A stretch of 64,000 bases of DNA from Candidatus Oxydemutatoraceae bacterium (lineage in GTDB: Bacteria; Pseudomonadota; Gammaproteobacteria; Poriferisulfidales; Oxydemutatoraceae): positions 64,001 to 128,000 of the forward strand of contig CBDCOZ010000003.1 in assembly GCA_965220085.1 (NCBI GenBank), given 5' to 3'. Below, one piece after another: positions 32,175-64,000 of the stretch; positions within the stretch are counted from its first letter, which is position 1, and the number at the start of each line of letters is the position of its first letter. Made by a program: the position numbers and the translations under genes. Below the pieces are notes generated by a model that saw only the letters and a list, made by a program, of their open reading frames with translations, was not told where the DNA came from and did not search any database.

Positions 32175-32393
32175 CGCCGACAGTGGGGATGTGTTTGAAC
32201 CCTCATGGGATTCTGCTATTGCAAAGTGACGGCGCACACCCCCACGCTTTGCAACTAAAATTAGGAGGAAATATCACATGCAGTTTTTATCAGACCCACA
32301 GGGTACACAAAACAACAATGCGGTTATGAAAATATCACATGCAGTCTTCACCGGACTCACAGGAGATCCTGGCAGTGTAGGATCATATTTATA

Positions 32394-32417
32394 CCCCCCC
32401 CCCCCCCCCCCCCCCCC
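32394..32417 (+). repeat. Poly-C tract (C24), putative phase-variation switch
   Basis: Lies between RBS-preceded ATG 32278 and the signal-peptide codons. Out of frame by 1. Confidence 0.8.
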
Positions 32418-32440
32418 TGCGCACATACGGGTGGGCAACG

Positions 32441-35110
32441 ATGACAGGGCGCGGTCTTTTTATGCTGGCACTGCTGGCTGTCTGCGCCCAAGCGCAGGCG
32501 CAGGCCAACAATGCCGCCACTGGTAATATATCTGTCGCCTACGCCAGCGGCACTGTGCCCACCGAGGATGTGCCGATAACCGCATCTGCAAGCAACATAG
32601 CCGATGACGATGGCGTGCCCGACCCGCTCAGCCTGAGCTGGCAATGGAGCCAGTCCAACGACAACGGCGTCACCTACGACGACATCACCGCCACCGCCGA
32701 AAACGGCGCGAACACCGCCACCTTCACCCCCGACCAGCCTCAGTCGAACAGGCTTCTGCAGGTCTGCGCATCGTTCGCCGACAACGCAAACAACTCCGAG
32801 AAGCTATGCCACCGGATAGCCACCAGGGTGGTCAATGTCAATGACCCGCCCGACAACCCCATGTTTACCGTTGGGGATCACTCAGACGGCCCTGCACTGA
32901 CTGGCGCACCCGTAGAGGACACGTCCATAACACTGGGATCCCAAGGCGTAAACGATGCCGACGGCTTTAGTGATCTCAACCGTACCACATATATTTGGAG
33001 CGCCGATAATGGCGGCGACGGGGTATTCACTGAAATCAGCAGACGAACCCTGTCTTTTACACCCGGCCAGGAACATGTCGGCAGTGTCATCCGCTGCTGT
33101 CTCACCTATAGGGATGACTTTAATGTCAGGGAAAGTTTCTGCATCATGACCCCCGAGCCGGTGGTCAACGCCAACGATGCGCCGGTGGCGCAACGAAGCA
33201 GTGTCGCGGTGCGCACCGATGCCACTTCCGCCGAGCCATATACATTCAAGCCATCCGACTTTCGCTTCGCCGATGAGGATGGCGATGCGTTGGCGAACAT
33301 CCGCATAACCGGCCTGCCCACTGGCAACTCCCAGGGTGTTGGCACTCTGCTCCTGAATGGCACCGCCCTGACCAGCGGCAACCTGCCGGTCACCTTGACA
33401 GCGGATGAACTTGATGACGGCGACCTCACCTATTATCCGACAGCCGGCAATGCGGCGGTCACCACCAGCAACAGCTTGTCAGCTGGATTCTATGCCCAAT
33501 TCAGCTTCAAGGTGGAGGACGATGGCGACGATATCAGGCTGGATGGCAATGGCGAAGAGATCGAGGCCAACGTAAGCGCCAACATCGGCTCCATGAACAT
33601 CCGTTTGGCAGACACCAGCGAGCAGGTCCCCGCCGGCGGCGCGCCCGCCATCTCCCCCTCGGGCGACAGCCACCGTCAGCACACCGTGCTGACCGCCGCA
33701 TACACCGACGATACCAACTTTATAATATTTGACCGCAACGGCATAGACGAGGGCACAGTCAGGTGGCAGTGGCAACAAGCCGCTCCGGTCAATGACGCGG
33801 TCCCCGCCGAAGCCAGCAGCGCCTGGACCAACATAACCGGGGCCACCGATGCCGCCTTCGCCCTGACCCAGGCCCAGGTGGGCATGCATACCCGCGTCCG
33901 CATCACCTTTGCCGATGGCCTGGGCAATACCGAGGGCCCGTTCTATTCCGCCTCCATCACGACCACCGATGTCGCCGATGCGCCAGTGGCGCCGGGTAAC
34001 ACCATCCCGGTGGCCGCGGGCCGCAGTTATGCTTTCTCGGCGGCTGATTTTCCGTCTAGCGACGAGGACGGGGATGCCTTGGTTCACATGCGACTGAGAA
34101 GTCTGCCTGACAACGGTACGCTGTCTCTCCGCCGCCCCGCCACCGCTACTGCTTCAACTTTAACGAGCGTTCCTGTAGTAGCATTCACAAGGGAAGAATT
34201 TGAGCAACTCGGAGAAGAAGGAGGGATCGAGTTGGTCTATGCCCCTCCCGCGGCTGCCACCACGCCCACGGCGAACTATGACAGATTTACGTACAGCGTC
34301 CAAACTGGCACGGATGCGGCGCCGAGCAACGAGGCCGTCATCACCATAGCCCTGGTGTCGGCCATGCAATCAACGGCAACCGGCGCGCCGACGGTGACAG
34401 CGGTTGCCGGCGCCGCCTACGCCGAGGACACGGAATTGACCGCCTCCGTCGACGACATCAGCGATGACAACGGCATAGACCGCAGAACCCTGATGTGGCA
34501 GTGGCAATCTGCCGCCGCCCCCGCTAACGGCACCGCCCCGGCGGTCAGAGCCTACGGTGCCATCGCCGGAGCCACCGCCGCCGCCTTCACCCCGTTGCAA
34601 ACCCATGTGGGCAGATACATCCGCGTCTGCCTGACATTCACCGACGGCATAGGCGAGCGCGAGGACCCGCTCTGTTCCGACGGTGAGCGGGTTGCCAATG
34701 TCAACGATGCGCCGATGACCGAAGACAGCGAAGTGTCCGTGCCCACCATGACCACCGAGGAGATGCCCTATGCATTCAAGGCGAGCGACTTCCCGTTTGC
34801 CGACGAGGACACCGGTGACTCTCTGCAAGGTATCACCATCACCGATGCGCCGGACAAGGGCGCTTTGTTGGTAGGCGGCGAAGCGCTGTTGACATCCGGC
34901 TCGAGCAAAAACAACGTGGTGTCTGTGTCCGACATCTCCATGCTCGCTTACTACCCGGCGGCCGATGCGGAAGCGGGGCGAAACTATGACTCATTTGAAT
35001 TCACTGTCAGCGATGGCACGGAGAGCAGCGTCGCCGCGTCAATGAGCATACATCTGGGGGCCGACCTGCGCTTGCGGTTGCGCATCTTCTTGGAGGGGCC
35101 GCTGCGATAG
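32441..35110 (+). CDS. Secreted cadherin/Ig-like repeat protein with C-terminal LRLRLRIFLEGPLR tag (member 1)
   Basis: Signal peptide ending AQAQA. NVNDAP...DF.F.DEDGD.L repeats alternate with WQWQQ...GAT..F...VG..IRV modules. The true start may be 32278 through the poly-C. Confidence 0.85.
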   Translation: MTGRGLFMLALLAVCAQAQAQANNAATGNISVAYASGTVPTEDVPITASASNIADDDGVPDPLSLSWQWSQSNDNGVTYDDITATAENGANTATFTPDQPQSNRLLQVCASFADNANNSEKLCHRIATRVVNVNDPPDNPMFTVGDHSDGPALTGAPVEDTSITLGSQGVNDADGFSDLNRTTYIWSADNGGDGVFTEISRRTLSFTPGQEHVGSVIRCCLTYRDDFNVRESFCIMTPEPVVNANDAPVAQRSSVAVRTDATSAEPYTFKPSDFRFADEDGDALANIRITGLPTGNSQGVGTLLLNGTALTSGNLPVTLTADELDDGDLTYYPTAGNAAVTTSNSLSAGFYAQFSFKVEDDGDDIRLDGNGEEIEANVSANIGSMNIRLADTSEQVPAGGAPAISPSGDSHRQHTVLTAAYTDDTNFIIFDRNGIDEGTVRWQWQQAAPVNDAVPAEASSAWTNITGATDAAFALTQAQVGMHTRVRITFADGLGNTEGPFYSASITTTDVADAPVAPGNTIPVAAGRSYAFSAADFPSSDEDGDALVHMRLRSLPDNGTLSLRRPATATASTLTSVPVVAFTREEFEQLGEEGGIELVYAPPAAATTPTANYDRFTYSVQTGTDAAPSNEAVITIALVSAMQSTATGAPTVTAVAGAAYAEDTELTASVDDISDDNGIDRRTLMWQWQSAAAPANGTAPAVRAYGAIAGATAAAFTPLQTHVGRYIRVCLTFTDGIGEREDPLCSDGERVANVNDAPMTEDSEVSVPTMTTEEMPYAFKASDFPFADEDTGDSLQGITITDAPDKGALLVGGEALLTSGSSKNNVVSVSDISMLAYYPAADAEAGRNYDSFEFTVSDGTESSVAASMSIHLGADLRLRLRIFLEGPLR

Positions 35111-35203: not shown

Positions 35204-35400
35204 CGGAGAGGGGGAGAGTCGTGGGGTGCGCACAAGGGGGTGCGCATACCTCACTAAAGGTAGGCCGCTGCGATAGCACGAGAGCCCTGCAGCGGAAAAG
35301 GGGAGTGTTGTGCGGTGCGCACGAGGGAGTGCGCCTACCCCCTTTGAGGTATGCCGCTACGGAGGTGTTGTGGAGTCGCACAAGAAGGCGAGACAGTAGA

Positions 35401-35563: not shown

Positions 35564-35747
35564 GCAGTACTAAGAGTGCTGGCACTCATTAGTACAATTT
35601 CGTTTGCTAGACAACTACGAGGAGTAAATACGATGAATCGACAATCTGCCAAAGGCACTTGCACAATGGCTCGCACTGATAGCAGAATAACTGCTACCAT
35701 AGACTGCTATAGGAGTAATACTATGAATAAACAAGTTTTTAATACTG

Positions 35748-35769
35748 CCCCCCCCCCCCCCCCCCCCCC
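35748..35769 (+). repeat. Poly-C tract (C22), putative phase-variation switch
   Basis: Follows AGGAG-ATG 35723 (MNKQVFNTA). Out of frame by 1 with the 35793 ORF. Confidence 0.8.
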
Positions 35770-35792
35770 TGCGCACATACGGGTGGGCAACG

Positions 35793-38396
35793 ATGACAGG
35801 CCGCGGTCTTTTTATGCTGGCACTGCTGACCGTCTGCGCCCAAGCGCAGGCACAGAACAATGCCGCCACCGGTAATATATCTGTCGCCTACGCCAGCGGC
35901 ACTGTGCCCACCGAGGATGTGCCGATAACCGCATCCGCGAGCAACATAGCCGACACCGATGGCGTGCCCGACCCGCTCAGCCTGAGCTGGCGATGGAAAC
36001 AGGTCCACCCCGTCAACAGCGCCATTACCGACATAGAGGGCGCCACCTCCGCCACTTTCACCCCCGACCAGCCCCAGGTGCGCTTTTTTCTGCGCGCCTG
36101 CGCATCGTTCACAGACAACGTCGGAAACAGCGAGGAGCTGTGCCACCAGATAGCCACCGCCGTGGCCAATGTCAATGACCCGCCCGCCCCCGTGCTTACC
36201 ATTGGAAGCGACCTGAACTCCCCTGAACTGACCGGCGCACCCAGAGAGGGCGCATCCTTAACACTGGCAGGCTCCAACATAAACGACCCCGACGGCGTCG
36301 ATGAGTTTTTCTCCCAATCCCTATGGATTTGGGACCAGGACGATGGCGGCAACGGGGTATTCGTCAATGTGCTCACATCGAGCAACGCCGCCGCATTCAC
36401 CCCGACTCAGGAACATGTCGGAAATCGCATCCGCGGCTGTATCAGGTACAGAGATGACTTTAGTGCCATGGAAAAGGCCTGCGTCACCACCCTGCCGGTG
36501 GTCAACGCCAACGATGCGCCGGTGGCGCAACTCGGCAGAGTGGCGGTGCCCGTCAACGCCACCTCCGCCGAGCCATATCCATTCAAGCCGACCGACTTCC
36601 CATTCACCGATGAGGATGGCGATGCGCTGGCGAAAGTCCAAATAACCGCACTGCCCACTGGCGGCGGCCAGGGTGGCGGCACTATGGCCAGGAATGGCGC
36701 CGCCCTGACCAGCGGCGACCTGCCGGTCACCCTGACAGTGGCGCAACTTGAGGCTGGCAACCTGACCTATTATCCGACTGCCAGCAATGCGGAGGTCACC
36801 ACCAGCAACAGATTGTCATCTGGATTCTATGCCCAATTCAGCTTCAAGGTGGAGGACGATGGCAGCGATGGCGAGGATGACAAAGTTAGCGTGGATGCCG
36901 CCACAATCAACATCCGCCTGGTATCCACCAGCCAGGCCGCCGCCGGAGGTGCGCCCGCCATCACCCCCTCGGGCGCCAGCCAACCCCAGCACACCGTGCT
37001 GACCGCCGCATACGATGACGGCACGAACTTTATAATATTTGACCGCAACGGCATAGACGAGGGCACAGTCAGGTGGCAGTGGCAGCAAGCCGCCCCGGTC
37101 GATGGCGCGGCCCCGCCGCCGACAAGCAGTGCCTGGACCAACATAACCGGGGCCACCGATGCCGCCTTCGCCCTGACCCAGGCCCAGGTGGGCATGCATA
37201 CCCGCGTCCGCATCACCTTTGCCGATGGCCTGGGCAATACCGAGGGCCCGCTCTATTCCGCCTCCATCACGACCGCCGATGTCGCCGATGCGCCGGTGGC
37301 GCCGGGCAATACCATCCCCGTGGCCGCGGGCCGCAGTTATGATTTCTCGGCGGATGATTTTCCGTTTAGCGACGAGGACGGGGATGCCTTGGTTCACATG
37401 CAATTAGTCAGTCTGCCTGACAACGGTACGCTGTCTCTCCGCCGCCCCGCCACTGCTACTGCCTCAACTTTAACGAGCGTTCCCGGAGCATTCACAAGGG
37501 ACGAATTGGAACAACTCGGAGAGGAAGGAGGGATCGAGTTGGTCTATGCCCCTCCCGCGGCTGCCACCACGCCCACGGCGAACTATGACAGATTTACGTA
37601 CAGCGTCCGAACCGGTACGGGCGCGGCGCAAAGGGATAGCAACGAGGCCGTCATCACCATAGACCTGGTACCGGCCACGCAATCAACAGCAACCGGCGCG
37701 CCGACGGTGACAGCGGTTGCCGGCGCCGCCTACGACGAGGACACGGAATTGACCGCCTCCGTCGACGGCATCAGCGATGGCAACGGCATAGACCGCAGAA
37801 CCCTGATGTGGCAGTGGCAACAGTCCGCCACTCAGGCCGGCACCTACGCCGACATCGCCGGGGCCGCCGCCGCAGCCTTCACCCCGTTGCAAGCCCATGT
37901 CAACCGATACATCCGCGTCTGCCTGACATTTGAAGATGGCATAGACACGACCGAGGGCCCGCTCTGTTCCGCTGGTGCGCGGGTTGCCAATGTCAACGAT
38001 GCGCCGACGACCAAAGACAGCGAAGTGTCCGTGCCCACCATGACCACCGAGGAGATGCCCCATGCATTTCAGAAGAGCGACTTCCCGTTTGCCGACGAGG
38101 ACGCCGACGACTCTCTGCGAAGTATCGCTATCACCAGCACGCCGACCGCAGGCATCTTGCGCGCGGGGACGACGAGAATCACCGCAAGCAATGTGCCATA
38201 CGAGGTAGAGGCAGACGACATCTCCATGCTCGCCTACTACCCGGCGGACGATGCGGAAGCGGGGCGAAACTATGACTCATTTGAATTCACTGTCAGCGAT
38301 GGCACGAAGAGCAGCGCCGCCGCGTCAATGAACATCCATCTGGGGGGCGACCTGCGCTTGCGGCTGCGCATCTTCCTGGAAGGGCCGTTGCGGTAA
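35793..38396 (+). CDS. Secreted cadherin/Ig-like repeat protein with C-terminal tag (member 2), mosaic paralogue of member 1
   Basis: Long near-identical blocks shared with 32441-35110. Ends LRLRLRIFLEGPLR. Confidence 0.85.
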   Translation: MTGRGLFMLALLTVCAQAQAQNNAATGNISVAYASGTVPTEDVPITASASNIADTDGVPDPLSLSWRWKQVHPVNSAITDIEGATSATFTPDQPQVRFFLRACASFTDNVGNSEELCHQIATAVANVNDPPAPVLTIGSDLNSPELTGAPREGASLTLAGSNINDPDGVDEFFSQSLWIWDQDDGGNGVFVNVLTSSNAAAFTPTQEHVGNRIRGCIRYRDDFSAMEKACVTTLPVVNANDAPVAQLGRVAVPVNATSAEPYPFKPTDFPFTDEDGDALAKVQITALPTGGGQGGGTMARNGAALTSGDLPVTLTVAQLEAGNLTYYPTASNAEVTTSNRLSSGFYAQFSFKVEDDGSDGEDDKVSVDAATINIRLVSTSQAAAGGAPAITPSGASQPQHTVLTAAYDDGTNFIIFDRNGIDEGTVRWQWQQAAPVDGAAPPPTSSAWTNITGATDAAFALTQAQVGMHTRVRITFADGLGNTEGPLYSASITTADVADAPVAPGNTIPVAAGRSYDFSADDFPFSDEDGDALVHMQLVSLPDNGTLSLRRPATATASTLTSVPGAFTRDELEQLGEEGGIELVYAPPAAATTPTANYDRFTYSVRTGTGAAQRDSNEAVITIDLVPATQSTATGAPTVTAVAGAAYDEDTELTASVDGISDGNGIDRRTLMWQWQQSATQAGTYADIAGAAAAAFTPLQAHVNRYIRVCLTFEDGIDTTEGPLCSAGARVANVNDAPTTKDSEVSVPTMTTEEMPHAFQKSDFPFADEDADDSLRSIAITSTPTAGILRAGTTRITASNVPYEVEADDISMLAYYPADDAEAGRNYDSFEFTVSDGTKSSAAASMNIHLGGDLRLRLRIFLEGPLR

Positions 38397-38483: not shown

Positions 38484-38552
38484 ATGAACATCCATCTGGG
38501 TGCCGATCTGCGCTTGCGCTTGCGCATCTTCCTGGAGGGGCCGTTGCGATAG
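38484..38552 (+). repeat. Orphan duplicate of the C-terminal tag (MNIHLGADLRLRLRIFLEGPLR*)
   Basis: Copy of the last 22 codons of member 2 with mostly synonymous changes. Confidence 0.85.
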
Positions 38553-39073
38553 CGAGCAATCCATCGCAAGACTTGCGCTAACATGCTCCCTTGTGGCAAG
38601 CAATACTCTCCCCTTGTGGGAGAGTCAGCGAGCTTCGCTCGCTGGAGAGGGGGATAAACCACACTCCCTCTCGCACCATCCCCGAAGGCGAGACGGTAGG
38701 GAAGCAGCGATAGCAACGCCCGAACCTTTCCCCCTCACCGCATCGTCCTTCGCCTGCGGCTCGTCCTCTGCGACTCTCCCGCGAGGGGAGAGTCGTGGGG
38801 TGCGCACAAGGGAGTGACAGACAGACTTGCAAAGGACTTGTGCTTTGTGGTAGAGTAGAATACTAAGAGTACAGCACTCATTATTAAGAGTACGGTACTC
38901 ATTTATACGACTGCATTAATATGGCTACATTTACCAGACAAGACTAAACATCAGGAGGAAGACTATGATTTGTGATAGAGTGCATAGCATTAAGCGTACC
39001 AACACGCACCGTACAATCGTATTCACTAGACAAGCCATGAGGGGGGCCGCCATGAAGCAAAAAATATTTAATA

Positions 39074-39096
39074 CCCCCCCCCCCCCCCCCCCCCCC
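39074..39096 (+). repeat. Poly-C tract (C23), putative phase-variation switch
   Basis: Follows ATG 39052 (MKQKIFNT). Out of frame with the 39114 ORF. Confidence 0.8.
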
Positions 39097-39113
39097 TCGC
39101 ACTAGGGGTAGCG

Positions 39114-41864
39114 ATGATTCGGCGCTTCCTCTTGTTGCTGGTTCTGCTTGCCCTGTTTGCCGTCTACACCCAGGCCCAGGCCCGCACCGACCAGACAGCG
39201 GGTGACTTCGTAGCGCCGGTCGTCCCCCAGGCTGCGCCCATTGCCGTAGGCCCTTCGGCGCCCGTGGGGGCGCTGACCAGCGCCACCGCCGACAATCCGC
39301 ACTACTTCACGGCCAATGACTTCGGTTTTGTGGACTTCGACGGCGACCGTCTGCAAAGTGTGATCATAAAGACTCTGCCGAATCTTGGCACCCTGAGGGT
39401 AGGCGCCGCTAATGTTGTCATAGGCGCCAACAATACTGTGGCGATGATGGCCATCGCCACCCTGAACTATTACCCCCCATCGGGTCAGTCCCCGCAATCG
39501 AACTACGCCAGTTTCACCTTCAGTGTCACCGCCGGCGATGAGGAATCCAACATCGCCGCCGTCCGCATAGACCTGCGCGCAACCGCTCAGGTGGCCGCCA
39601 CCGGCATGCCCGACATAGCATCTGTGCGCTCCGGCCTGCTCAATGCCGCCCATTACGACAAGGACGAGGAGCTGTTTGGCCTGGCCATTTTCAACGGCAT
39701 CACCAACCTGCAAGTCCAACGCAGCTCAATCATCCAGAACGGCGGCGCGACCGCCTTTGCCTCCGCCGCCTTAGGCGCCATCAGCGACCACAACGGCATC
39801 GGCTCAAGCATCAGTTGGCAATGGCAACAGTCCGCTACCAGCGATGGCACATATGCGCCCGTCAGCGGTGCCAACCCAGTCAGAGTCACCACAACCATCA
39901 ACAGAATCACCCCGCGCCAGGCCCAGGTGGGCAAATACATCCGCGCCTGCGTCACCTTCAATGACCTCCACGCCACCTCCAACTCCGAGACGCTGTGTTC
40001 CGCCAGCGCCCGCATAGTGGATGGCGGCGAACGCCCTGCCGGCGGCGACAGCACCGTCAGTGTGCCGGACAACGCCAACGCCGCCAGCCCGCACCGCTTT
40101 GCCGCCGCCGACTTCCCCTTCAGCGATACGGGCGGCGATACCATCAACGGCATCCGCATAATATCCCTGCCCTCCAGGGGCACGCTGGCGGTGGCGGGCG
40201 ATACCAATGTCACCATAGCCGTCGGCACCGAACTCAGCCAGGCGCAGTTGAACGCCCTGGCCTACTACCCGGATGCCTACGCCAGCCCCGAGCCGGGCTA
40301 TGCCACCTTCACATACCGGGTACACGATAGCGGCAGCGATGACGCCACCAACACCGCCACCGGCGATTCCACCCTTACCATAGATCTGGCTCCCACCACC
40401 ACAGAACAGGTCGCCGCCAGCGGTCGCCCGGACTTTACCGGCGGCGCCACCCAGGGCCAGACCCTGAGCGCCGCCATCGGCACAGTGCGCGATGCCAACG
40501 GCATCAACCGGGATACCATCGCCTGGCAATGGTATCAAGCCCCCACCGATGCCGATGTTTTTCCCCCTACCGGCGACTTCGTCCCCATAGCGGATGCCGC
40601 AGAGGCCGAGCTTGTGCTCACCCAGGCCCAGGTGGGGCATCTTGTGCGCGTCTGCATCAGTTTCACCGACACCCACAGCGCCCCCAACCCCGAAGGCCCG
40701 CTCTGCTCCATCATCTTTTTCATACAGAACATCAACGATGCCCCCACCGGCGACGACACCATTGTGATGGTACCTGCCGCCGCCGCCGCCGCCAGCCCGC
40801 ACAACTTTGAGCGCGGCGATTTTCCATTCATGGATATAGATGGCGATGATCTGGCCGGCATCCGCATAGCCAGCCTGCCGACAGGCGGCACGCTGGTGGT
40901 GGCGGGCGATGCCAGTGTCACCATAGCCGTCGGCACCGACCTGACTCTGGCACATCTGGATGCTCTGGCCTGGTATCCCCATGACAACGCCACCCCAGGC
41001 AATGGCTACGACAGTTTCACCTACTGGGTGCGCGATGATATGGGCGGAAGCGCCTCCATCGCGCAGGACGCATCCACCCTCACGATAGATCTCATCAGCG
41101 CAACCCCGACCGCCGCCGGCGGTCAGCCCGCCATCAGCGGCGCCGCCACCCAGGGCCAAACCCTGAGCGCCGCCATCGGCACAGTGCGCGATGCCAACGG
41201 CCTGAACCCCGCGACCTTGCGTTGGCAATGGTATGCGGCCGCGCCGGACGACGGCTCGGCGCCGGCGGCGGACAGCAGCGCCTGGGCCGCCATAGCCGAT
41301 GCCACCGCCGCCGCCTTCATCCCGGCCCAGGCCCAGGTGGGCATGCACATCCGCGTCTGCGCATTCTTTATGGACAGCCACGCCACCAGCCCGGCAGCCG
41401 AAGGCGGCACCGTCGTCGCTCCCACGCTGTGCTCCGCAGCCAGTGCGCAGGTTGCCAATGTAAACGATGCGCCGATGACCGAAGACAGCGAAGTGTCCGT
41501 GCCCGCCACGGCCACTGCGATGATGCCCTATGCATTCAAGGCGAGCGACTTCCCCTTTGCCGATGAGGACGGTGACTCTCTGCAAAGTATCACCATCACC
41601 GGCATGCCGACCAAGGGCGCCTTGCGCGCGGGTACGACGATTATCACCGCAAGCAATGTGCCATACGAGGCAAGCGACATCCCCGAACTCAACTACTACC
41701 CGGAGGTGACCGAGACTGAAGTGGAAGCGGAGCGAAACTATGCCTCATTTCGATTCACTGTCAGCGATGGCATGGCGAGCAGTGCGCCTGCCACCATGAG
41801 CATACATCTGGGTGCCGACCTGCGCCTGCGCTTGCGCATCTTCCTTGAAGGGCCGCTGCGATAG
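39114..41864 (+). CDS. Secreted cadherin/Ig-like repeat protein with C-terminal tag (member 3)
   Basis: Signal peptide, four cadherin-like and three Ig-like modules. Ends LRLRLRIFLEGPLR. Confidence 0.85.
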   Translation: MIRRFLLLLVLLALFAVYTQAQARTDQTAGDFVAPVVPQAAPIAVGPSAPVGALTSATADNPHYFTANDFGFVDFDGDRLQSVIIKTLPNLGTLRVGAANVVIGANNTVAMMAIATLNYYPPSGQSPQSNYASFTFSVTAGDEESNIAAVRIDLRATAQVAATGMPDIASVRSGLLNAAHYDKDEELFGLAIFNGITNLQVQRSSIIQNGGATAFASAALGAISDHNGIGSSISWQWQQSATSDGTYAPVSGANPVRVTTTINRITPRQAQVGKYIRACVTFNDLHATSNSETLCSASARIVDGGERPAGGDSTVSVPDNANAASPHRFAAADFPFSDTGGDTINGIRIISLPSRGTLAVAGDTNVTIAVGTELSQAQLNALAYYPDAYASPEPGYATFTYRVHDSGSDDATNTATGDSTLTIDLAPTTTEQVAASGRPDFTGGATQGQTLSAAIGTVRDANGINRDTIAWQWYQAPTDADVFPPTGDFVPIADAAEAELVLTQAQVGHLVRVCISFTDTHSAPNPEGPLCSIIFFIQNINDAPTGDDTIVMVPAAAAAASPHNFERGDFPFMDIDGDDLAGIRIASLPTGGTLVVAGDASVTIAVGTDLTLAHLDALAWYPHDNATPGNGYDSFTYWVRDDMGGSASIAQDASTLTIDLISATPTAAGGQPAISGAATQGQTLSAAIGTVRDANGLNPATLRWQWYAAAPDDGSAPAADSSAWAAIADATAAAFIPAQAQVGMHIRVCAFFMDSHATSPAAEGGTVVAPTLCSAASAQVANVNDAPMTEDSEVSVPATATAMMPYAFKASDFPFADEDGDSLQSITITGMPTKGALRAGTTIITASNVPYEASDIPELNYYPEVTETEVEAERNYASFRFTVSDGMASSAPATMSIHLGADLRLRLRIFLEGPLR

Positions 41865-42209: not shown

Positions 42210-43150
42210 ATGAAAAAAACTAAAGACTTAAAAGCAGAAGATACGGCGGGGGTTGCTTATGACCCCGTCGATAACTTGACCGGCGCGGGCTTTGACAAAC
42301 AGAAAGCAGACGCGATTGCCAACGAGCAACTTGCGCTGGTGCGCAGACATCTGCGCACTCTGCTAACCAGAGAAGAGTTTGCCAAGTTTGAAGCAGTGAC
42401 TCAAAAAGAATTTGACAAGTTTGAGTTAGCGCTCAAAGAAAACAGGGCTCAGTGGAAAGAAGAGTTAGACAAGTTTGAGTCAGCCATGAAAGAAGCGCTG
42501 ACCGGTTAGCGACGAAAGAAGAATTGGCCGCTCTTGAAGCAGCCATGAAAGAAGAGCTGACCAAGTTGAGAGAAGCGTTAGACAATCTGGCGACGAAAAA
42601 AGAGATTGCCGAGTTCAAGTCAGAGATCAAAGAACACATAAATCAGTTGGAAAAAGAGCTGACCAAGTTGAGCGAAGAATTGACCAATCTGACGACGAAG
42701 AAAGAGTTAGGCGAGTTCAGCTCAGAGATCAAAGAAAACATAGATCGGTTGGAAAAAGAATTGGCTCGGTTGAGAGAAAAGTTAATTCAGTTTGAATTGG
42801 CAATAAAAGAAGGCTTAGCCAAGTTCAAGTCAGAAACCCAAAAAGACATAGCGCAGTTGCAAAAAGAATTGGACGAGTTCAAGTCAGAAATCAAAAAAGA
42901 GATGAATCAGTTGAGAAGAGAGATAACTGAGTTGAGAAAAGAATTGACCAAGGTGAGAGAAGCGTTAACCGATCTGGCAACCAAAAAGGAGTTAGCCGAG
43001 TTCAGAAAAGACATGGAAAATATGGCAACCAAAAAAGATCTGGAAAATCTGGCGACTAAAGAAGACGTGGCTAAGGCGACAATAGGAATCATAAAGTGGC
43101 TTGTATTAACCGCACTTGCGTTAGCGGCTGCGATAGCCGCATTTATGTGA
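42210..43150 (+). pseudogene. DUF1640/CCDC90-like coiled-coil protein with C-terminal TM segment, frameshifted near 42505
   Basis: AGFDKQKADAI head, repeated LATKKEL necks, C-terminal IIKWLVLTALALAAAI. Split into 42210-42509 and 42524-43150. Confidence 0.75.
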
Positions 43151-43479: not shown

Positions 43480-43790
43480 ATGCGGAAACTTAATAATGTT
43501 TACACCAATTTACCCCCCGCGCTGGCGGGCAACGATGGCTCGGTTTGGTCTCTTGTTACCGTCGGTGATGCGGCGCAGCCTCCGGCTACTGGTTCTGCTG
43601 ACCCTGTTGGTTATCTGTGCGCAGGCGCAGGCGCAGAACAAAGCCGCCACCGGCGCACCAGCGGTCACGGCGGCAGACAGTGCCGACCTGACCATGGTGG
43701 GGGCCCAATGAGGACATCTTTCTCACCGCCGCCAGAGTCGCCGGTTTGCTCTTGCGGTTGCGTATCTTCTTGGAAGGCCCGCTACGATAG
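43480..43790 (+). pseudogene. Internally deleted member of the tagged family (signal peptide joined almost directly to the tag)
   Basis: LLVICAQAQAQNKAATGAPAVTAADSADLTMVG matches the 5' end of 45702-46912. ARVAGLLLRLRIFLEGPLR* matches its 3' end. Confidence 0.8.
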
Positions 43791-44138: not shown

Positions 44139-45386
44139 ATGAAGCGAAAAACTTTTAACACTACCCCCCCCCCCCCCCCCCTTAAAATTTTTGGAGGGGT
44201 TTGCGCGGCGATGATGGCCGCTTTGTGTTTCGCATTCGCCGAAACCGCCCAAGCGCAAACCGAAGAATGCCCCGAAGGGGAAACGCGAGTCACGTCAACC
44301 AACAACGGCGCCGGCTGCTTCCCCAACGCCGCAGTTGACATTCTAATGCAATGCGAAGCAGCGGGATGGCTGGGCCGGGAAACGCCCGGCACATTTGTTG
44401 GCCGAGGGGAATTGGGTTGCGGAATCCCCTCATTGCTTTACACATCAGACACCGCCTCCTCCGGATTTTTTTGCTTCCTCCAAGAGCAATCCTCCCTTGG
44501 CGTGAATAGGTCTTGCACGGCAATGTATGGCGACCCGCCGGTCTTTCCGAAAGCGGCGGACCATCCCAATGTCCAAACCGACGGCCTTTCAGCCGGGCCG
44601 CGCTTTGTCGCAAACTGCGACCAGGACGGAGATGCCCCCGGCGGTTATCCGCCCGACCGCAACTTGAACGGCGAAACCGAATGCGTCTGCAATCCGAATT
44701 CGCACTTCGGCGACTGGCCGGACTGCACGGCCTTTCCGACCGGCGCGACGGCGGCGGATAGGGCGAAGGCGCTCAAATGTGTGGCGCAAGGGTGGACTAT
44801 TTCCACCGGCACCGCCCCCATCAAATGCGAAGTCCCGCTGACCTCCGGCGGCGCCGTTTTTGACGGGTGCTTTTTCGGTTCGGGTTCGCCGCTGTGCGCG
44901 GATGTGTTCGGCACGGAGTTCGCCGTGCCGGAAAAGGAGCCTCCGGAATGGGTTTTGAATCTTGCCAACGCCTTCGTCGCAAAGTCCCGAGACGCAACGC
45001 TTACCGATACGGTTAAAGCCGCCGCGGCGGTTTACGCGGCGGCGGTGTGGGCGCGATACGACGGCGATTCGGATTATCTGGACGGCCCCACCGGCAACCA
45101 CGACAGCAGCAGCGACGACGACAAAACCAGCATTGCCCTTTTGGTTTCGGGTCCGGTTTTCACGGCGCATGGAATTCCGTTTGAGTGGCAGCCGGATTTG
45201 TTCCGGATACCGCCTGCGATTCGGCTGGCGTACAGTCGTATTCCGGTGGCGGTTCCGTATGTTTTCAATTGCGGGGAGGGCATGTCTCCGGCAACGGCCA
45301 ACACGGACGGCGCGACGGCATGCGCGGTCGCCGACTCGCCCCTGCGCTTGCGGTTGCGCCTCTTCTTGGAAGGCCCGCTGCGATAG
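44139..45386 (+). CDS. Secreted Cys-rich protein with C-terminal tag; in-frame C18 tract (ON)
   Basis: MKRKTFNTTPPPPP, signal peptide ending AQAQ, Cys-rich modules, LRLRLRLFLEGPLR. RBS AGGAG. Confidence 0.85.
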   Translation: MKRKTFNTTPPPPPLKIFGGVCAAMMAALCFAFAETAQAQTEECPEGETRVTSTNNGAGCFPNAAVDILMQCEAAGWLGRETPGTFVGRGELGCGIPSLLYTSDTASSGFFCFLQEQSSLGVNRSCTAMYGDPPVFPKAADHPNVQTDGLSAGPRFVANCDQDGDAPGGYPPDRNLNGETECVCNPNSHFGDWPDCTAFPTGATAADRAKALKCVAQGWTISTGTAPIKCEVPLTSGGAVFDGCFFGSGSPLCADVFGTEFAVPEKEPPEWVLNLANAFVAKSRDATLTDTVKAAAAVYAAAVWARYDGDSDYLDGPTGNHDSSSDDDKTSIALLVSGPVFTAHGIPFEWQPDLFRIPPAIRLAYSRIPVAVPYVFNCGEGMSPATANTDGATACAVADSPLRLRLRLFLEGPLR

Positions 45387-47655: not shown

Positions 47656-47700
47656 CTGCGCCTGCGGCTGCGTCTCTTCCTGGAAGGCCCGTTGCGATAG
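47656..47700 (+). repeat. Orphan copy of the C-terminal tag coding sequence
   Basis: Reads LRLRLRLFLEGPLR* with no passenger gene upstream. Confidence 0.85.
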
Positions 47701-51032: not shown

Positions 51033-51757
51033 GCGACCGCCGCACCGGCGTCGGTTTTGACCAACTGCTGATGGCGACCGAAGTCGCGCCGGATGCGTCC
51101 GAGATTTTCTGCCGCATCTTTAACGCCGACGGCGGCGAAGTGATGCAGTGCGGCAACGGTGTGCGCTGTCTTGCGCGCTTTGCCGCGGACAAGGGTTTGC
51201 TCACGGTCGGCGCACAAGGCATCGGCATAAAGACCCGGACGCGCACGACGGTTCTTGAGATGGCGGACGACGGCATGATTCGCGCGGCGATGGGACAAGC
51301 CGTGACCGCGCCCGAGCGGATTCCGTTTGCGTGCGAAGGCGATCTGATGTCTTACCCGATGGATGTCGGCGGGCGCGAGTTCAATATCGGCGTGCTCTCG
51401 TTTGGCAATCCCCACGCGGTGGTTGAAGTGGCGCGATTGGATGATATTCCGGTCGCGGACTTGGGCGCGGCGATGCAGACCCACGAATGCTTTCCGCAAG
51501 GGGTCAATGTCGAATTTATGCAATGCATCGATCGCAACACGATCGCATTGCGCATCTACGAACGCGGCGCGGGGGAGACGATGGCGTGCGGCAGCGGCGC
51601 GTGTGCCGCTGCGGTGATTGCGGTGCGCCGCAAGCGCACCGATAGCAATCTGCGGATACGCATGCCGGGCGGCGAGTTGGCGGCGGTGTGTGACGGCGAC
51701 AGCGTCGTGCTCACCGGCCCTGCGCTGTATGTGTATGACGGAAGCGTTGAGACATGA
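50927..51757 (+). CDS. dapF: Diaminopimelate epimerase
   Basis: FSKMQSLGNDF, QCGNGVRC, GNPHAV, GVNVEF and ERGAGETMACGSGACA. Confidence 0.97.
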   Translation: MPVRFSKMQSLGNDFMIVDATAQTFSPSPEVIARLGDRRTGVGFDQLLMATEVAPDASEIFCRIFNADGGEVMQCGNGVRCLARFAADKGLLTVGAQGIGIKTRTRTTVLEMADDGMIRAAMGQAVTAPERIPFACEGDLMSYPMDVGGREFNIGVLSFGNPHAVVEVARLDDIPVADLGAAMQTHECFPQGVNVEFMQCIDRNTIALRIYERGAGETMACGSGACAAAVIAVRRKRTDSNLRIRMPGGELAAVCDGDSVVLTGPALYVYDGSVET

Positions 51758-52362
51758 GCGAGAAGCAGCAGCAAGCCGATGAAGCGCGGATAGCGGAGCG
51801 CCTTGCCGCGCCCGCGGCGTATGCGTATGACGGAAGCGTTGAGACATGAGCGAGAAGCAGCAGCAAGCCGATGAAGCGCGGATAGCGGAGCGCCTCGCCG
51901 CGCCTGCGCTGTATGCGTATGACGGAAGCGCTGAGACATGAGCAAGAAGAAGCAGCAAGCCGACGAAGCGCGGATAGCGGAGCGCCTTGCCGCGCCCGCG
52001 GCGTATGCGTATGACGGAAGCGCTGAGACATGAGCGAGAAGCAGCAGCAAGCCGATGAAGCGCGGATAGCGGAGCGCCTTGCCGCGCCCGCGGCGTATGC
52101 GTATGACGGAAGCGCTGAGACATGAGCGAGAAGCAGCAGCAAGCCGGTGAAGCGCGGATAGCGGAGTACCTCGCCGCGCCCGCGCTGTATGCGTATGACG
52201 GAAGCGTTGAGACATGAGCGAGAAGCAGCAGCAAGCCGATGAAGCGCGGATAGCGGAGTACCTCGCCGCGCCTGCGCTGTATGCGTATGACGGAAGCGCT
52301 GAGACATGAGCAAGAAGAAGCAGCAAGCCGATGAAGCGCGGATAGCGGAGTACCTCGCCGCG
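51718..52362 (+). repeat. 7 x 92-bp tandem repeat of the dapF/DUF484 junction encoding six 31-aa ORFs
   Basis: ATGA overlaps at 51754, 51846, 51938, 52030, 52122, 52214 and 52306. Confidence 0.95.
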
Positions 52363-53013
52363 CATCCCGACTTCTTTGAGCGCCACCCCGAAGTGATAGA
52401 GCGCCTGAACTTGTCGCCGCAGGATGTTGTCGGCAATGTGGCGATACTCGCGGAGAAGCAAACCCGGCAGTTGCAAAATCGCCACCACAAACTCGAGACG
52501 AGTTTTAAGACGGTGGTCAAAAATGCCACCGAGAATGAGCGGCGGAGTATCTGCCTGCACCGTCTGGCGGTGCGCCTGACGATGCGCGAATACAGCGGCC
52601 GGGCGCATGTGGCGGAGAGTGCGCTGGGTGTGTTGCGCGAAGAGTTGCCGATGAATATCATCAACATTATCGGCTGCGCCGACAGCCGGGATGGCAATAG
52701 CGGGGCGGACGACCCGCGGCTACGGAGCTTGGTGACATCGCTGTTTGCCGCCAACAAACCCGATTGCGGCCCGTTTGACGCGGCGGCCAAAGCGGCCATG
52801 TTCGGCAATCTCGCAAAGCGCATCGCATCCGCTGTCGTCATGCCGCTGTCGTGCCCCGGCGGCAGCGATGGCGGTCACATCGAACGCTTGGGCGTGCTGG
52901 TTTTTGGCAACACCTCGGCGGAAAGCTTCAAGGCCGGGATGGGAACGATGTTTCTGGTGCAGTGCGCGGAATTGATTGCCGCGACGCTTGCGCGGTGTGA
53001 CGACCGGGCATGA
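52306..53013 (+). CDS. DUF484 (YigA-like) family protein
   Basis: IAEYLAAHPDFFERHP and FKAGMGTMFL. Conserved position between dapF and xerC. Confidence 0.9.
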   Translation: MSKKKQQADEARIAEYLAAHPDFFERHPEVIERLNLSPQDVVGNVAILAEKQTRQLQNRHHKLETSFKTVVKNATENERRSICLHRLAVRLTMREYSGRAHVAESALGVLREELPMNIINIIGCADSRDGNSGADDPRLRSLVTSLFAANKPDCGPFDAAAKAAMFGNLAKRIASAVVMPLSCPGGSDGGHIERLGVLVFGNTSAESFKAGMGTMFLVQCAELIAATLARCDDRA

Positions 53014-56444: not shown

Positions 56445-57453
56445 CTACCCGCCTTTAGGCTGGCTTTTGCCCGAAATGCAGTGCTCCGCTATTTTTTCCA
56501 TAATGCTGTCTAGTTCTCGGTCAACGCCATCTATGGCTGCCATCCGAATGCCTTCTGAAAAATGCTCCATATGTAACGGAACTGCTCTTTCCATAACATA
56601 ATCAATCTTTCCGCAGTTAACAAGGGCAGTCTCCTTTCCTGTTAGCAGGACGACAAAAAAGATGAAGTCGGGAAAATCTACGAATCCAGTATATTCAAGG
56701 ACAATCGGCAAGTCTGGGCGAGCAATGTGCGCCCTCCGAAGATGCATGTCCGCGCCATCCCGGCGGAAAAAAAGTCACGGGGACATATGACATTTCCACC
56801 TTGGTTTCAGGGGGATACCGATTGAAGTTCTCCTCTTGCTTGTTCAAGAGTTGTTTCATCGTGCGGACTTTGGTGTCATTCTTGTGCCACATGTTGATAT
56901 ACATATAGTCTTGGGATGCTATGGATACCTCTAATAAATCAAGAGGGGTGCCTCGCTGATACAGGTATGCCAAAGGAGCGCTGGACATGTCGCCAAGCCT
57001 GTCCCTGTTGTCAACCACCCATCCAAACGGGGCGGTTAAGAGAACACCATGCGAATCCACATAAGGGAATCCCCATTTGGATTGAAACATCCACAGATTA
57101 ATGGGATCCGTGGTAAGGATGTCCAACTCAATGCCCTGCCTCTCGCTCTGGGCCCTCTTCAAGGCACCGGAAGTGTAGCCCACATTCGTTACGAGAATGC
57201 CCCTGTCGGCGCGGACATCGCGCACCAGCCCGGCGAATGATTCCACAACCCCGACATTCACTTTGCGGTTGAAGTATTTTCCGTCCACAACGATGTTGAC
57301 CGTTCGTCCGGCCGCCCGATCCCGAATGAGCACATCAATTTGTCGCCTTGCGCCGGACTTCCCTTCCAATTTTTGGTTCCGGAGAACCTGCGCTTCGGGA
57401 AATAACATGCGAAATTCGGCATGAATTTCTCGCTCGTATTCCTTCCAGTTCAT
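56445..57453 (-). pseudogene. Mrr-like restriction endonuclease, likely frameshifted near 56750
   Basis: WKEYE...RQIDVLI...VDGKYF...VESF...GILVTNVGYT. Continues in a second ORF at 56445-56747. Confidence 0.65.
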
Positions 57454-60635: not shown

Positions 60636-61508
60636 ATGTTTCACATCGGCTCACACTTTAGAATGTGTGCGCTTTGCGCGGCGATGATGCTCGCCGCCGC
60701 GGATGCCCTTGCGCAAACCTCCGGTAACGAATGCGCCGCCGGAACGGAGTCGGTCACGGCGCATTCCACAACCGCGTGTCTTCCGTCCGCCGCCGCACAA
60801 GCGTTTCGGGACTGCCGCGACGCGGGATGGACTGTCATGTTGACTGCTACGTCGTCAGTTTGCAGTATGCCGTTTCGCCTTTACGGCGCAACGCAAAACT
60901 CCGGCGTCTCCGGCTCGGACTGCCTGATTCACGGCATAATGTCCACCACCGCCTGCTCCGACATTTTCGGGACCCCGCCCAAGTTTCCCAAAGCATCTGA
61001 CCATACCGATGTTGTCGTCAATGACATCAACACCAAGCGTTTTCAAGCCAACTGCGACCTGTCCGGCAACGCCCCCGGCGGTTATCCGCCCGACCACAAC
61101 TTGAACGGCGAAACCGAATGCGTCTGCGATCGGGCCTCGTACGTCGACCCATGGCCGAACTGCACACCCTTTCCGACCGGCTTAACCTCCGCCGAGCGGG
61201 AGGGGATTCGCGCATGTACGGATCAAGGCTGGACTATTTCCACCGCCACCGCCTACTTCAAATGCGACATCCCGCTGACCTCCGGCGAGGGAAATTCTGA
61301 CGGGTGCGTTTTCGGCGAGGGTACGCCGCAGTGCGCGGATGTATTCGGCGAGCAGATCATCCTGCCGGAAAAGGAGGATTCGGTTCGGTATGTTTTCAGC
61401 TGCGGGGCGGGCATGTCTCCGGCGGGTGCGAATCTGAATGGCGCGACGGAATGCGTTCAAAACCTGCTCTTGCGGCTGCGCCTATTCTTGGAAGGCCCGT
61501 TGCGGTAG
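60636..61508 (+). CDS. Secreted Cys-rich protein with C-terminal tag (no poly-C); paralogue of 44139-45386
   Basis: Signal peptide ending ALAQ, shared ANCD..G.APGGYPPD.NLNGETECVC block. Ends LLLRLRLFLEGPLR. Confidence 0.85.
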   Translation: MFHIGSHFRMCALCAAMMLAAADALAQTSGNECAAGTESVTAHSTTACLPSAAAQAFRDCRDAGWTVMLTATSSVCSMPFRLYGATQNSGVSGSDCLIHGIMSTTACSDIFGTPPKFPKASDHTDVVVNDINTKRFQANCDLSGNAPGGYPPDHNLNGETECVCDRASYVDPWPNCTPFPTGLTSAEREGIRACTDQGWTISTATAYFKCDIPLTSGEGNSDGCVFGEGTPQCADVFGEQIILPEKEDSVRYVFSCGAGMSPAGANLNGATECVQNLLLRLRLFLEGPLR

Positions 61509-61788
61509 CGGGTATCCTGCGGCGGAGAAGGGGAGTGAAGGTGTGCAGGGGTGAGACAGGAGGCGCTTGCACACAACCGAATGTGTGGTATAGTGCGACA
61601 TCCTTTTGACGCAAGTGCAGATGAAACTTGCGAATGATTGAATGTGTGGTATAGTGCAAGACTTATATTGAGCAAACGCCTTCGCTGGCCACGAGTTATC
61701 AGGAGTAACAGATATGAATAAACAGATTTTTAATATACTACTCTTCAGAGGAAGCGACCCAATGTGTCGCGCCATTATAGGTAAAAGC

Positions 61789-63112
61789 ATGAACAAAAAA
61801 GTTATTAATACTACCCCCCCCCCCCCCCCCCCACCCACCCCTGAACAGAAGGCGGCGATGACCCGGCGTAGCCTCTGGTTGCTGGTCATGCTCGCCCTGT
61901 TCGCCGTCTGCGAACAGGCACAGGCGCAGGACACCGCACCGGACTTTGGCAATGCGCAGGTGACTGGTTCGGATCTGATCTGGCTGACCGACCGAGACCT
62001 CAATCTGATCTTGCCCGCGGCTACCGGCGGCAACGGCGCCATCACCTACAGCTTGTCGCCGGTCCTGAACAACGCTTCCGGCCTGACCTTTGATGCGGCT
62101 ACTCGCACCATCAGCGGCCGACCGGCTTTGTCTGTCGGTACCAACGACTACACGCTGACAGCCACCGATGCCGACGGCGATACCGATACGCTGACATTTA
62201 GGGCCGAAGCGCAAGCCGATTCGGCGCCGGCCTTTGCCGATGATGCCACCGTTGCCAACCAGACCTGGATATCGCATCTTGCCATTAATCTGGCGTTGCC
62301 CGCAGCCAGCAGCGCTACCGCGGGTAATATCCTCCTTGATGCCGCACAGACGCAAAACTTGGCTCCGCTCACCTATGCCCTGACCCCGGCTTTGCCTGCG
62401 GGCTTGCGCTTTGATGCCGACACCCGCACCATCAGCGGCGCACCCGCCGCTACCGCAACCGCCATCACCTATGCCTACACGGTCGCCGATGGCGACAGCA
62501 ATACCTCGCCCGACGATGCGGATACCCTGACGTTCGCCATCGCCATCAATGCCACTTCTTGCGCCGATGGCAAGGTGCCGCTGGACGGGGACGACTCGTG
62601 CGTGACTCCGGCGGAGAAATGCGCGATGAGGGGATGGGACAAAACCACCGGAGCGGTTTGCCATTTTGGAAACAGGGGGGGACTACGCGATTTACGATCT
62701 CAGAAACTTCACCGGCAATCTCATCAACACCGATAGCGACGGCTTATGCAACATAACACCCGGCGCGGCAAGCGGCATTTCGGAATGCACAGATGTGTTT
62801 GGCCCGAATTATGAGTTTCCCCAAATTCCGAATCCGGCTGTGCTCACCCGCTATGTTTACAACTGCGACCCGGACGGGACGCGCGGTCTGGTTCCGGCGA
62901 CTTACAACGCCATCGGCGCCATAGGTTGCGCTTGCGCCAATCCCGCCAAGGTTCCGCGCGATGCGATTTTCGGCAATTTAGCCAACGGTCCCCGAGTGAT
63001 GCTTACCGGCCAATGCGCTTGTCCGGAGGGGACGACGGAGAATGCGGCCGGCGCTTGCGTTGCGGCTCTGCGCCTGCGGCTACGCCTTTTTCTTGAAGGC
63101 CCGCTACGGTAG
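61789..63112 (+). CDS. Secreted putative-Ig (He_PIG-like) plus Cys-rich protein with C-terminal tag; C19 in frame, frameshift at G7 (62675-62681)
   Basis: MNKKVINTTPPPPPP, LPAATGGNG...GLTFDAATRTISG repeats. Loss of one G joins it to 62666-63112, which ends in the tag. Confidence 0.75.
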
Positions 63113-63237
63113 CGAGTGCCCTGCGGCGGAGAAGGGGAGTGTTAGGTGCAAAAAGGGGTGAGACAGGAGGCACTTGCGGATGCAAGACTTATATTGAGTA
63201 AACGCCTTCACTGGTCACAATGTTAGGAGTAATAGAT

Positions 63238-64000
63238 ATGAATCAAAAAATGATTAATACTACCCCCCCGAATTGGCGGGTAGCACGAACCCGGCTTAGC
63301 CTCTTACCACTTATTCTGCTCACCCTGTTCGCAGTCTGCGACCCGGCACAGGCGCAGAACGCCACTGGCGAACCGGCGGTAACGGCGGCGGATGGCGCCG
63401 ATTTGACGATGGCGGGGCCCAATGAGGACAGCCTGCTCACCGCCACCACGGGCACCATAGAAAACCCCGCTGGCATAGGTACTGTCTTCTGGCAATGGCA
63501 ATCCGCCCCCGCTCCCGACACCGGCGCTCCGGCGGCCAACGTATACACCAACATAGACGGGGCCACTGCCGCCACTTTTACGCCCCTGCAGGAACATGTC
63601 GGCAAATTTTTGAACGCCTGCGCCTTCTTCCATGATAATGATTTCAACGTTGAGATTTTGTGTTGGGCCTCCGTCGCCGCAGTTGCCAATGTCAACGATG
63701 CCCCGACGGCTACCGACAACACCATAATGGTGTCCAATACCGCCGATGCCGACAACCCCTACAAATTCTCGGCCAGCGCCTTCGCCTTTGCCGATGAGGA
63801 GGATGGCGACAGTCTGGCCAGCGTCACCATAGTGACCCTGCCAACCACCGGCACCCTGAGTCTGAATGGCACGGCCCTGAGCGCCGTCCCCGAAAGTCCC
63901 ATAACCGCCGCCCAGCTGGAGGCGGGCGCTCTGACCTACTATCCGGCGGCCGACCAACAGCCCACCGACCCCTCCGCCGCCGCCTACGACAGTTTCACAT
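63238..64000 (+). CDS. Secreted Ig/cadherin-like family member (partial, runs off the window; not in the ORF track)
   Basis: AGGAG-ATG, MNQKMINTTPPNW (C7), signal peptide ending PAQAQ, ATGEPAVTAADGADLTMAGPNED and NVNDAP. Confidence 0.85.
   Translation, partial: MNQKMINTTPPNWRVARTRLSLLPLILLTLFAVCDPAQAQNATGEPAVTAADGADLTMAGPNEDSLLTATTGTIENPAGIGTVFWQWQSAPAPDTGAPAANVYTNIDGATAATFTPLQEHVGKFLNACAFFHDNDFNVEILCWASVAAVANVNDAPTATDNTIMVSNTADADNPYKFSASAFAFADEEDGDSLASVTIVTLPTTGTLSLNGTALSAVPESPITAAQLEAGALTYYPAADQQPTDPSAAAYDSFT

Follow-up and report, generated by a model that had tools for sequence, protein, structure and literature searches.

Poly-C tracts, a shared terminal tag and a proposed docking adaptor in a secreted protein family of an uncultured gammaproteobacterium

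The repeats of the genes opa and pilC lie in signal-peptide codons, and donor-strand complementation is known from chaperone-usher pili. Both serve here as comparisons for a stretch of 64,000 nucleotides (the window) of Candidatus Oxydemutatoraceae bacterium (assembly GCA_965220085.1, here G000; 2.49 Mb in three contigs), which corresponds to positions 64001-128000 of contig CBDCOZ010000003.1 (G000:C3:64001-128000). The window carries members of a family of secreted-protein genes with a poly-C tract in the leader and a 14-residue tag, LRLRLRLFLEGPLR, at the C-terminus of the product. At a probability of about 0.75, the preferred reading is a two-layer model in which phase-variable tagged proteins would dock on one anchored adaptor. 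In the following, coordinates with the prefix C1 or C3 refer to contigs of the genome and all others to the window.

Phase variation is defined by reversible switching at a high rate (PMC11868660). opa is a multigene family that is switched per locus and contains the repeat CTTCT inside the reading frame, and the mean number of phase-variable genes per genome is given as 54 for the gonococcus and 39 for the meningococcus (PMC5953494). For Campylobacter, 5-81 phase-variable genes per strain were reported, with tracts that are mostly 9-10 and rarely 13-15 bases long (PMC6321876). A neighbouring cohesin-dockerin pair was predicted in a symbiont (10.64898/2026.03.19.712371). The surface location of Vibrio VesB requires a type II secretion system (T2SS; PMC6219818), and known genomes with GlyGly-CTERM contain up to thirteen directly anchored proteins (PMC3237569).

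Poly-C tracts and the reading frames of the tagged genes

Throughout the genome, A/T runs reach at most 9 bases (two runs), whereas the lengths of G/C runs peak a second time at about 13-28 bases, with 90 runs of at least 9, so that the tracts are not explained by chance. Of these 90 runs, 88 mark the 5′ end of a long frame (150 codons or more) and read as C on its coding strand; the tag is reached unbroken in 83 of the 88 downstream frames. Since these frames are almost unbroken, the assembly appears to be accurate away from the tracts, with indel errors being rare there. The original prediction had proposed a combinatorial repertoire of six long tracts; the switch reading stood, but the count had to be raised to 88 for the genome. 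In total, the tag could be detected 222 times, 217 times directly before a stop codon and 189 times after at least 100 open codons. The frames of these 189 tagged genes total 0.49 Mb, which is about one fifth of the genome. About 100 tagged genes have no long tract, and giant tagged frames of 15,193, 14,215 and 13,255 codons (C3:1442649-1488230, C3:1770458-1813105 and C3:1344695-1384462) are likewise without a long C tract.

By a frame-blind DNA motif search, 64 leaders of the family were identified, 35 without and 29 with a long run. Read-through to the tag was found for 31 of the 35 leaders without a long run, compared with 8 of the 29 with one (Fisher p = 6e-7), which argues that the leader ATG is the start and that the frame depends on the tract. 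Of the four exceptions, three belong to genes whose long tract follows later, the leader found being an extra copy upstream; in the remaining one, an in-frame gene has its leader in duplicate. Where at least two stop-free ATGs are present upstream of a tract, all of them lie in one frame at 61 of 68 tracts. The earlier claim that the upstream ATG is the real start is thus borne out by the paralog comparison, with less force for members 1-3 of the window (see below).

Frameshift ON/OFF switching by tract length is the best reading of the tracts and probable, and the switching would be active and reversible. It is supported by tract-less paralogs that keep the leader in frame, by the purity of the tracts and by contingency-type genes among the tract genes of relatives. 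Each tract separates a Shine-Dalgarno (SD)-led ATG leader from the hydrophobic core (h-region) of a Sec signal peptide. In the proposed mechanism, which follows known repeat-based phase variation, replication slippage would add or remove C's. One length class in three would join the leader to the gene, the other two would stop early, and about 83 tagged genes would be gated independently of each other. Judging from their signal peptides, the ON products would reach the periplasm by Sec.

For comparison, 40 related genomes were used, none of them from the same genus. C13 runs are present in 25 of the 40. In eight relatives examined, 6-45 runs of at least 12 C's were found per genome, 125 tracts together. 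From these, 60 tracts were taken, and the 47 with an adjacent frame of at least 140 codons were analysed by a Pfam scan: four frames belong to DNA methylases or restriction enzymes, five to methyl-, sulfo- or glycosyl-transferases or 2OG oxygenases, seven to immunoglobulin (Ig), fn3, Calx or PKD proteins and two to others, and 29 could not be named. The tract genes of the relatives, whose assemblies are separate, thus fall in gene classes typical of contingency loci. The long C/G tracts in the DNA methylase/restriction genes (L027, L033, L034 and L035 in the genomes G003, G026, G019 and G022) mark, by sequence, candidate phase-variable methylation systems. A scan of a metagenome-contig collection for leader plus tract and one of a genome-contig collection for the tag each gave zero matches; either collection possibly holds no near records.

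Both mutS and mutL are intact in the genome, and a mutator explanation of the tracts was rejected for this reason. Intact mismatch repair would favour long tracts, in line with the report that the effect of mismatch repair falls on longer tracts (PMC4085013).

Within the window, all seven C runs that had been reported were recovered at their positions and lengths, and the frames given for them were correct at each tract. All members lie on the forward strand. The tract keeps the frame in members 4, 6 and 7 (ATGs at 44139, 61789 and 63238), members 1 and 2 (32278 and 35723) are one base over, and members 3 and 5 (39052 and 45702) are one base short. An AGGAG-type ribosome-binding site, predicted as the usual element before the leaders, directly precedes five of the seven ATGs; it is replaced by GAGGGGG in member 3 and by a weak site in member 6. 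The signal peptides of the window members are of the A-x-A type by inspection, Ig/cadherin-like matches are weak to moderate, and no match to a beta-barrel family was obtained in Pfam and NCBIfam scans.

Member 1 (32278-35110) has a long leader, the tract C24 (32394-32417), an internal ATG at 32441, a signal peptide, Ig/cadherin-like repeats and the tag LRLRLRIFLEGPLR, which together with the stop codon occupies 35066-35110. Member 2 (35723-38396) starts with the leader MNKQVFNT, has further leader-frame ATGs at 35633 and 35666, the tract C22 (35748-35769), an internal ATG at 35793, a signal peptide and Ig-like repeats, and ends with the tag (38352-38396). In member 3 (39052-41864), the leader MKQKIFN and the tract C23 (39074-39096) are followed by an internal ATG at 39114, a signal peptide, Big_9 Ig domains and the tag (41820-41864). 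Member 4 (44139-45386; tract C18 at 44164-44181, tag at 45342-45386) codes for a Cys-rich secreted protein of 415 aa, for which Pfam and NCBIfam searches gave zero matches. Member 5 (45702-46912) contains the tract C19 (45727-45745) and the tag (46868-46912); as predicted, it has no in-frame ATG ahead of the h-region, and GTG and TTG are also absent there.

Member 6 (61714-63112) has three leader ATGs (61714, 61762 and 61789), of which 61714 is in frame and AGGAG-led, the tract C19 (61814-61832) and He_PIG Ig domains. It had been predicted to read through; this holds at the tract but not further downstream, where the frame from 61789 ends at 62736 without the tag, and the tag (63068-63112) lies in a frame that differs from that of the start. 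As assembled, the gene is truncated by a second frame break at about 62620-62690, a stretch that includes a G7 run at 62675-62681, and this break may be an assembly error, decay or a second slippage site. The C7 of member 7 (63238-64000; run at 63263-63269) is of ordinary background length, with 112 G/C runs of 7 in the genome, and the gene continues beyond the window to a tag at C3:128140. A further tagged family member with a signal peptide and without a long tract is located at 60636-61508, also on the forward strand. Some leaders are nested duplicates, in which an upstream M-N-x-Q leader is in frame with a second one (35633-35723 and 61714-61789).

Copies of the tag-coding gene end also occur on their own. 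In the window, these comprise a duplicated gene end at 38508-38552, an orphan tag that ends a decayed gene fragment at 43746-43790 and an orphan tag at 47656-47700, all on the forward strand; similar orphan or tandem copies are found at G000:C3:513720-514187. They suggest frequent duplication or recombination at gene ends.

A signal peptide could be located for 86 tract genes, of which 44 have an in-frame ATG, GTG or TTG after the tract and 42 have none before the h-region. An internal start with an SD-like duplex is present in 16 of the 86, including members 1-3 and excluding members 4-6. Alternative downstream ATGs had been predicted for members 1-3; they are present there and, in addition, in members 4 and 6, and among these five members the duplex is found in members 1-3 only. 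The SD energies were calculated with a generic anti-SD sequence, since the assembly contained no match to the 16S 3′ motif. For 10 of the 32 genes with an internal ATG, including members 1, 2, 4 and 6, the first stop codon of one OFF frame overlaps the internal ATG as ATGA, and graded output through re-initiation may be possible there. Promoter-like sites occur at chance level (7 versus 6.4).

Several observations weigh against switching. The leader frame is unambiguous at 81 tracts, and these divide into 20 in frame, 38 one base over and 23 one base short; the classes are uneven (chi-square p = 0.03), with an in-frame share that does not differ from one third (p = 0.12), which a systematic over-call of length could also produce. 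Within-population length variants were seen neither in the contigs of run X1, which drop rare variants, nor in the depthless run X3. The latter (raw Hi-C, about 1 in 100 reads) has a near-zero true depth, and its pile-ups of poly-C reads on two tracts are artefacts; run X2 consists of short pieces only. The X1 contigs, which match the window and may be the source data, stop at the tracts, except for one that spans member 3 without gap at C23. Two of four paralog pairs that are alike on both sides of the tract have equal tract lengths; the other two differ by 3 and 4 C's. Finally, members 1-3 each have an internal ATG whose SD-like duplex equals that of the member 2 leader in strength (-7.3 versus -6.8).

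The excess of tracts that are one base over and the lack of variant reads would suit tracts that are fixed and in frame in vivo, with the OFF states being consensus errors and the runs coding for a proline spacer, and homopolymers of 15-28 bases are error-prone in sequencing. This explanation is nevertheless quite unlikely: the tracts are pure CCC, whereas CCG makes up 420 of 588 codons (71%) in proline runs elsewhere, tract lengths vary from 9 to 28 within one family, leader lengths differ by non-multiples of three, tract-less paralogs have no proline run, and the tracts of relatives occur in methylase and transferase genes, where a spacer makes no sense. Two paralog pairs with identical 60-nt upstream flanks also differ by 2 and 6 C's. 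The tract might instead act as a dimmer in genes with an internal ATG (members 1-3 and the other genes among the 16 of 86 with an SD-like site), where the internal start would yield protein regardless of length and the leader frame would block it or feed it by re-initiation at ATGA. The duplexes of members 1-3 and the ATGA overlaps would agree with this, but a dimmer is considered unlikely: many paralogs have Leu or Thr in place of the internal Met, the upstream leader stays in frame in tract-less genes that share this internal ATG, and 70 of the 86 tract genes lack an SD-supported internal start. An action of the tracts as DNA, in the form of a G-quadruplex or a recombination hot spot that shuffles paralogs with frameshifts as a by-product, would fit the common orphan tags and mosaic leaders and bodies such as those of member 2, whose 240 upstream nt are 98% identical to member 5 and whose downstream flank is that of member 1. 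It is very improbable, given that the tracts occur only within the coding leader and always in the same orientation (88 of 90) and are also found in single genes of other classes in relatives.

The tag, the putative adaptor and the anchor locus

Twelve poly-C-gated secreted genes of the relatives were extended to their ends. Four end in a variant of the tag, three in GlyGly-CTERM-like tails and two, from sister-family genomes, in autotransporter barrels; two ran beyond the DNA examined. The twelfth gene (L146 of genome G001) ends in a domain of 270 residues that begins with VNARVYLQGAY. With this domain as query, one gene could be identified in G000 (C3:469175-470137, 320 aa), which is termed the adaptor here; its mature chain sets in immediately behind the site that this first strand would occupy. 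A profile of the domain matched 15,997 representatives at E-values up to 0.001. Consensus work was carried out on stored matches of 152 proteins, including 82 fused domains and 32 short forms with a signal peptide. The consensus of the 82 fused domains starts with LdLKVFLEGPF and has 7 of 11 residues in common with the tag (LRLRLFLEGPL); 30 of the 32 short homologs are without the strand-1 motif. A hidden Markov model (HMM) of the fused domains found one significant gene in G000 (E-value 3.6e-23). At the sequence level, the acceptor thus lacks exactly the strand that the donor carries.

The second half of the domain contains a duplicated dockerin-like motif that is visible in the alignment; PF00404 scored above its cut-off in one of five adaptors of relatives that were scanned, and Dockerin_1 is present in 19% of the members of an Atlas look-alike cluster. 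A solved structure of the adaptor was not found by sequence search. In three secreted proteins (C1:23868, C1:36358 and C3:1171425), the tag is located at the N-terminus, where it directly follows the signal peptide and is succeeded by a GGSSS-type linker, a position that fits a docking strand and does not fit a C-terminal cleavage signal.

Among the 18 genomes of the same family, 16 have the domain, and G008 and G014 have neither domain nor tag. A tag before a stop codon was matched in 11 of the 18, all of which have the domain in a short frame; the N-termini of these frames were inspected for most of the 11 (not for G005, G012 and G018), and the genomes are non-independent kin. In G001, no tag match was obtained, and those of its 25 domain matches that were listed lie in frames of at least 687 aa, i.e., in the fused form, with at least L146 being poly-C gated. 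Its fused-domain loci L146, L164 and L177 are on large secreted proteins. Split and fused forms are therefore near-exclusive between genomes: the split form recurs across the family, and fused copies occur in one relative. Tagged cargo can be as large as 15,000 aa. In G002, G015 and G017, the gene immediately upstream of the adaptor is a tagged one, and the domain is absent from all 22 genomes of the other three families.

In G000, the adaptor gene is part of the locus L153 (G000:C3:455040-475607), which consists of a T2SS operon followed by the single adaptor gene, an anchor gene and a rhombosortase gene. The rhombosortase matched TIGR03902 with 96 bits (cut-off 84) and GspF was found with 450 bits (cut-off 424), while GspL and GspJ also scored over their cut-offs. 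The anchor gene (C3:470148-474257) begins 10 bases downstream of the adaptor and codes for a secreted product of 1369 aa that ends, by inspection, in a stretch of Gly followed by hydrophobic and then basic residues. Its N-terminal domain was modelled together with 20 syntenic homologs (predicted local distance difference test score, pLDDT, 72), and the top 19 rows of a VIA search with the model are cohesins with Z 8.8-11.9 (for the best Z, root-mean-square deviation 2.8 and 129 residues aligned); Foldseek gave an E-value of 8.7e-6 against cohesins. It is the only cohesin-like match in G000. In at least 20 of 26 loci, the adaptor is followed by a second secreted gene with a cohesin-like N-domain; these relatives were found by synteny, and the domain as a single query gave matches in just 2 of 41 genomes. 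Near an N-terminally tagged gene, C3:1167979-1169079 codes for another protein whose tail is GlyGly-CTERM-like.

Homology, complementary boundaries, synteny, co-occurrence and the cohesin fold make it fairly probable that the tag docks by donor strand on a surface-anchored adaptor, and the binding steps and the surface location are inferred from them. The tag, as the first beta-strand of a split Ig-like-plus-dockerin domain, would slot into the adaptor and complete its fold, and the dockerin-like end of the adaptor would bind the cohesin-fold N-domain of the anchor. The GlyGly-CTERM-like tail of the anchor would be processed by the adjacent rhombosortase, with surface placement through the adjacent T2SS, a route that has been demonstrated for Vibrio VesB (PMC6219818). 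The switches would then decide which cargo competes for the single socket. That all of this forms one plug-and-socket system, with a split X-dockerin-like domain, the tag on about 190 unrelated secreted proteins and about 83 switches choosing the cargo, has slightly better than even odds.

The docking part has its own counter-evidence. The HMM of the full domain gives no score for tags on their own, the adaptor of G000 has no dockerin match in Pfam, and the model of the fused domain is poor (pLDDT 55, strand 1 under 50), with weak fold matches in the VIA search (best Z 4.5, the X-dockerin chain 5g5d_B with 4.1 among ties). The anchor tail did not match the GlyGly-CTERM models, choice-of-anchor U being just under the cut-off. 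Furthermore, G004, G006, G010 and G013 have an adaptor yet no match to the tag pattern; G006 has a longer-tailed variant of the tag. As an alternative, the tag could be a direct secretion or pilus-binding signal, recognized by the T2SS or by minor pilins in the manner of PilC tails, with the adaptor-cohesin pair doing something else. The adjacent T2SS operon and the barrel ends of two of the twelve tract genes of relatives are in line with such a signal, and conserved C-terminal tails in Kingella bind minor pilins by beta-strand augmentation (PMC13711793). The agreement of the tag with strand 1 of the fused domain and the start of the adaptor just after this strand, the near-exclusive distribution of split and fused forms, the tagged genes directly upstream of the adaptor and the existence of N-terminal tags argue against it, and a direct signal is considered doubtful.

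If docking takes place, it would account for the retention of about 190 secreted proteins without a barrel at the surface of a Gram-negative cell, assign a role to a domain that is present in about 16,000 protein clusters and represent a natural peptide-and-catcher pair. Together with the switches, it would enable an uncultured bacterium to reshuffle its coat from a large library.

Other features of the window and the genome

The gene at 42524-43150, which is situated between members 3 and 4, codes for a protein of coiled-coil repeats that has a hydrophobic segment at its C-terminus and a weak CCDC90-like match; a similar repeat gene is located at C3:476731. Inside the lysA-dapF-xerC region, direct repeats form two arrays, at 50050-51032 with a period of about 325 bases and at 51710-52363 with one of about 92 bases. 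A gene with an Mrr_cat restriction endonuclease domain lies on the reverse strand at 56695-57453.

The best matches of ArgS are at most 53% identical, and the protein sits on a long branch without clear placement in the tree, in which the rows L123 and L135 are probably wrong-frame extractions. A large Hi-C run in the same study suggests a host association of this uncultured gammaproteobacterium.

Comparison with known systems

Phase variation by simple sequence repeats, as in Neisseria (opa with CTTCT, pilC with G9-20) and Campylobacter (poly-G), likewise involves an in-frame repeat in surface-protein genes, and the family described here has a simple repeat early in the coding region, at the 5′ side, with the frame being determined by the repeat length. 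Compared with the 11-12 opa paralogs reported for Neisseria, about 83 paralogs of one family would be switched here. The tracts differ from those of Neisseria and Campylobacter in being mostly 13-28 bases long and in occurring with intact mutS and mutL, in proteins without a barrel and in an unrelated family. About 83 long tracts in one family exceed the single-family repertoires in the literature compared, and the tracts of the relatives show a lineage-wide habit.

With cohesin-dockerin systems such as the cellulosomal X-dockerin or the non-cellulosomal pair Cag_2037/Cag_2038 of Chlorobium, the locus shares the dockerin-like end of a secreted Ig-like module and a neighbouring cohesin-fold N-domain. 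In contrast to these, the dockerin-like part is found on one small adaptor and not on each cargo, which appears to be attached by strand donation. In the anchor, a single cohesin was detected besides the GlyGly-CTERM-like tail, and the cargo is Ig/cadherin-like or Cys-rich; a match to glycoside hydrolases is absent from the window members. The combination of donor strand, cohesin-dockerin pair, GlyGly-CTERM and T2SS was not found in print in a search of titles and the openings of abstracts, with most subscription papers lying outside its scope.

From GlyGly-CTERM proteins with rhombosortase and T2SS, such as VesB, the Gly-rich motif, the hydrophobic segment, the basic tail and a target gene beside the rhombosortase are known as well. 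Unlike in the described GlyGly-CTERM genomes, the products of about 190 tagged genes would be held indirectly by a single anchor. Classical autotransporters share the signal peptide and a long Ig-like passenger, and two poly-C genes of the sister family end in a barrel, whereas the window members have no barrel match and their chains end in the 14-residue tag.

Donor strands and PilC tails (for the latter, PMC13711793) are likewise short strands that complete or extend the beta-sheet of another protein and hold an adhesin at the surface. In contrast to donor-strand pili, no polymer or pilus is implied here, the acceptor would be a split dockerin-bearing domain, and the donor is found on about 190 unrelated cargos at either terminus. 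Taken together, the switch mechanism is the textbook part of the system, whereas the tag as the strand of a split domain, together with the locus of adaptor and anchor, would be the new part.

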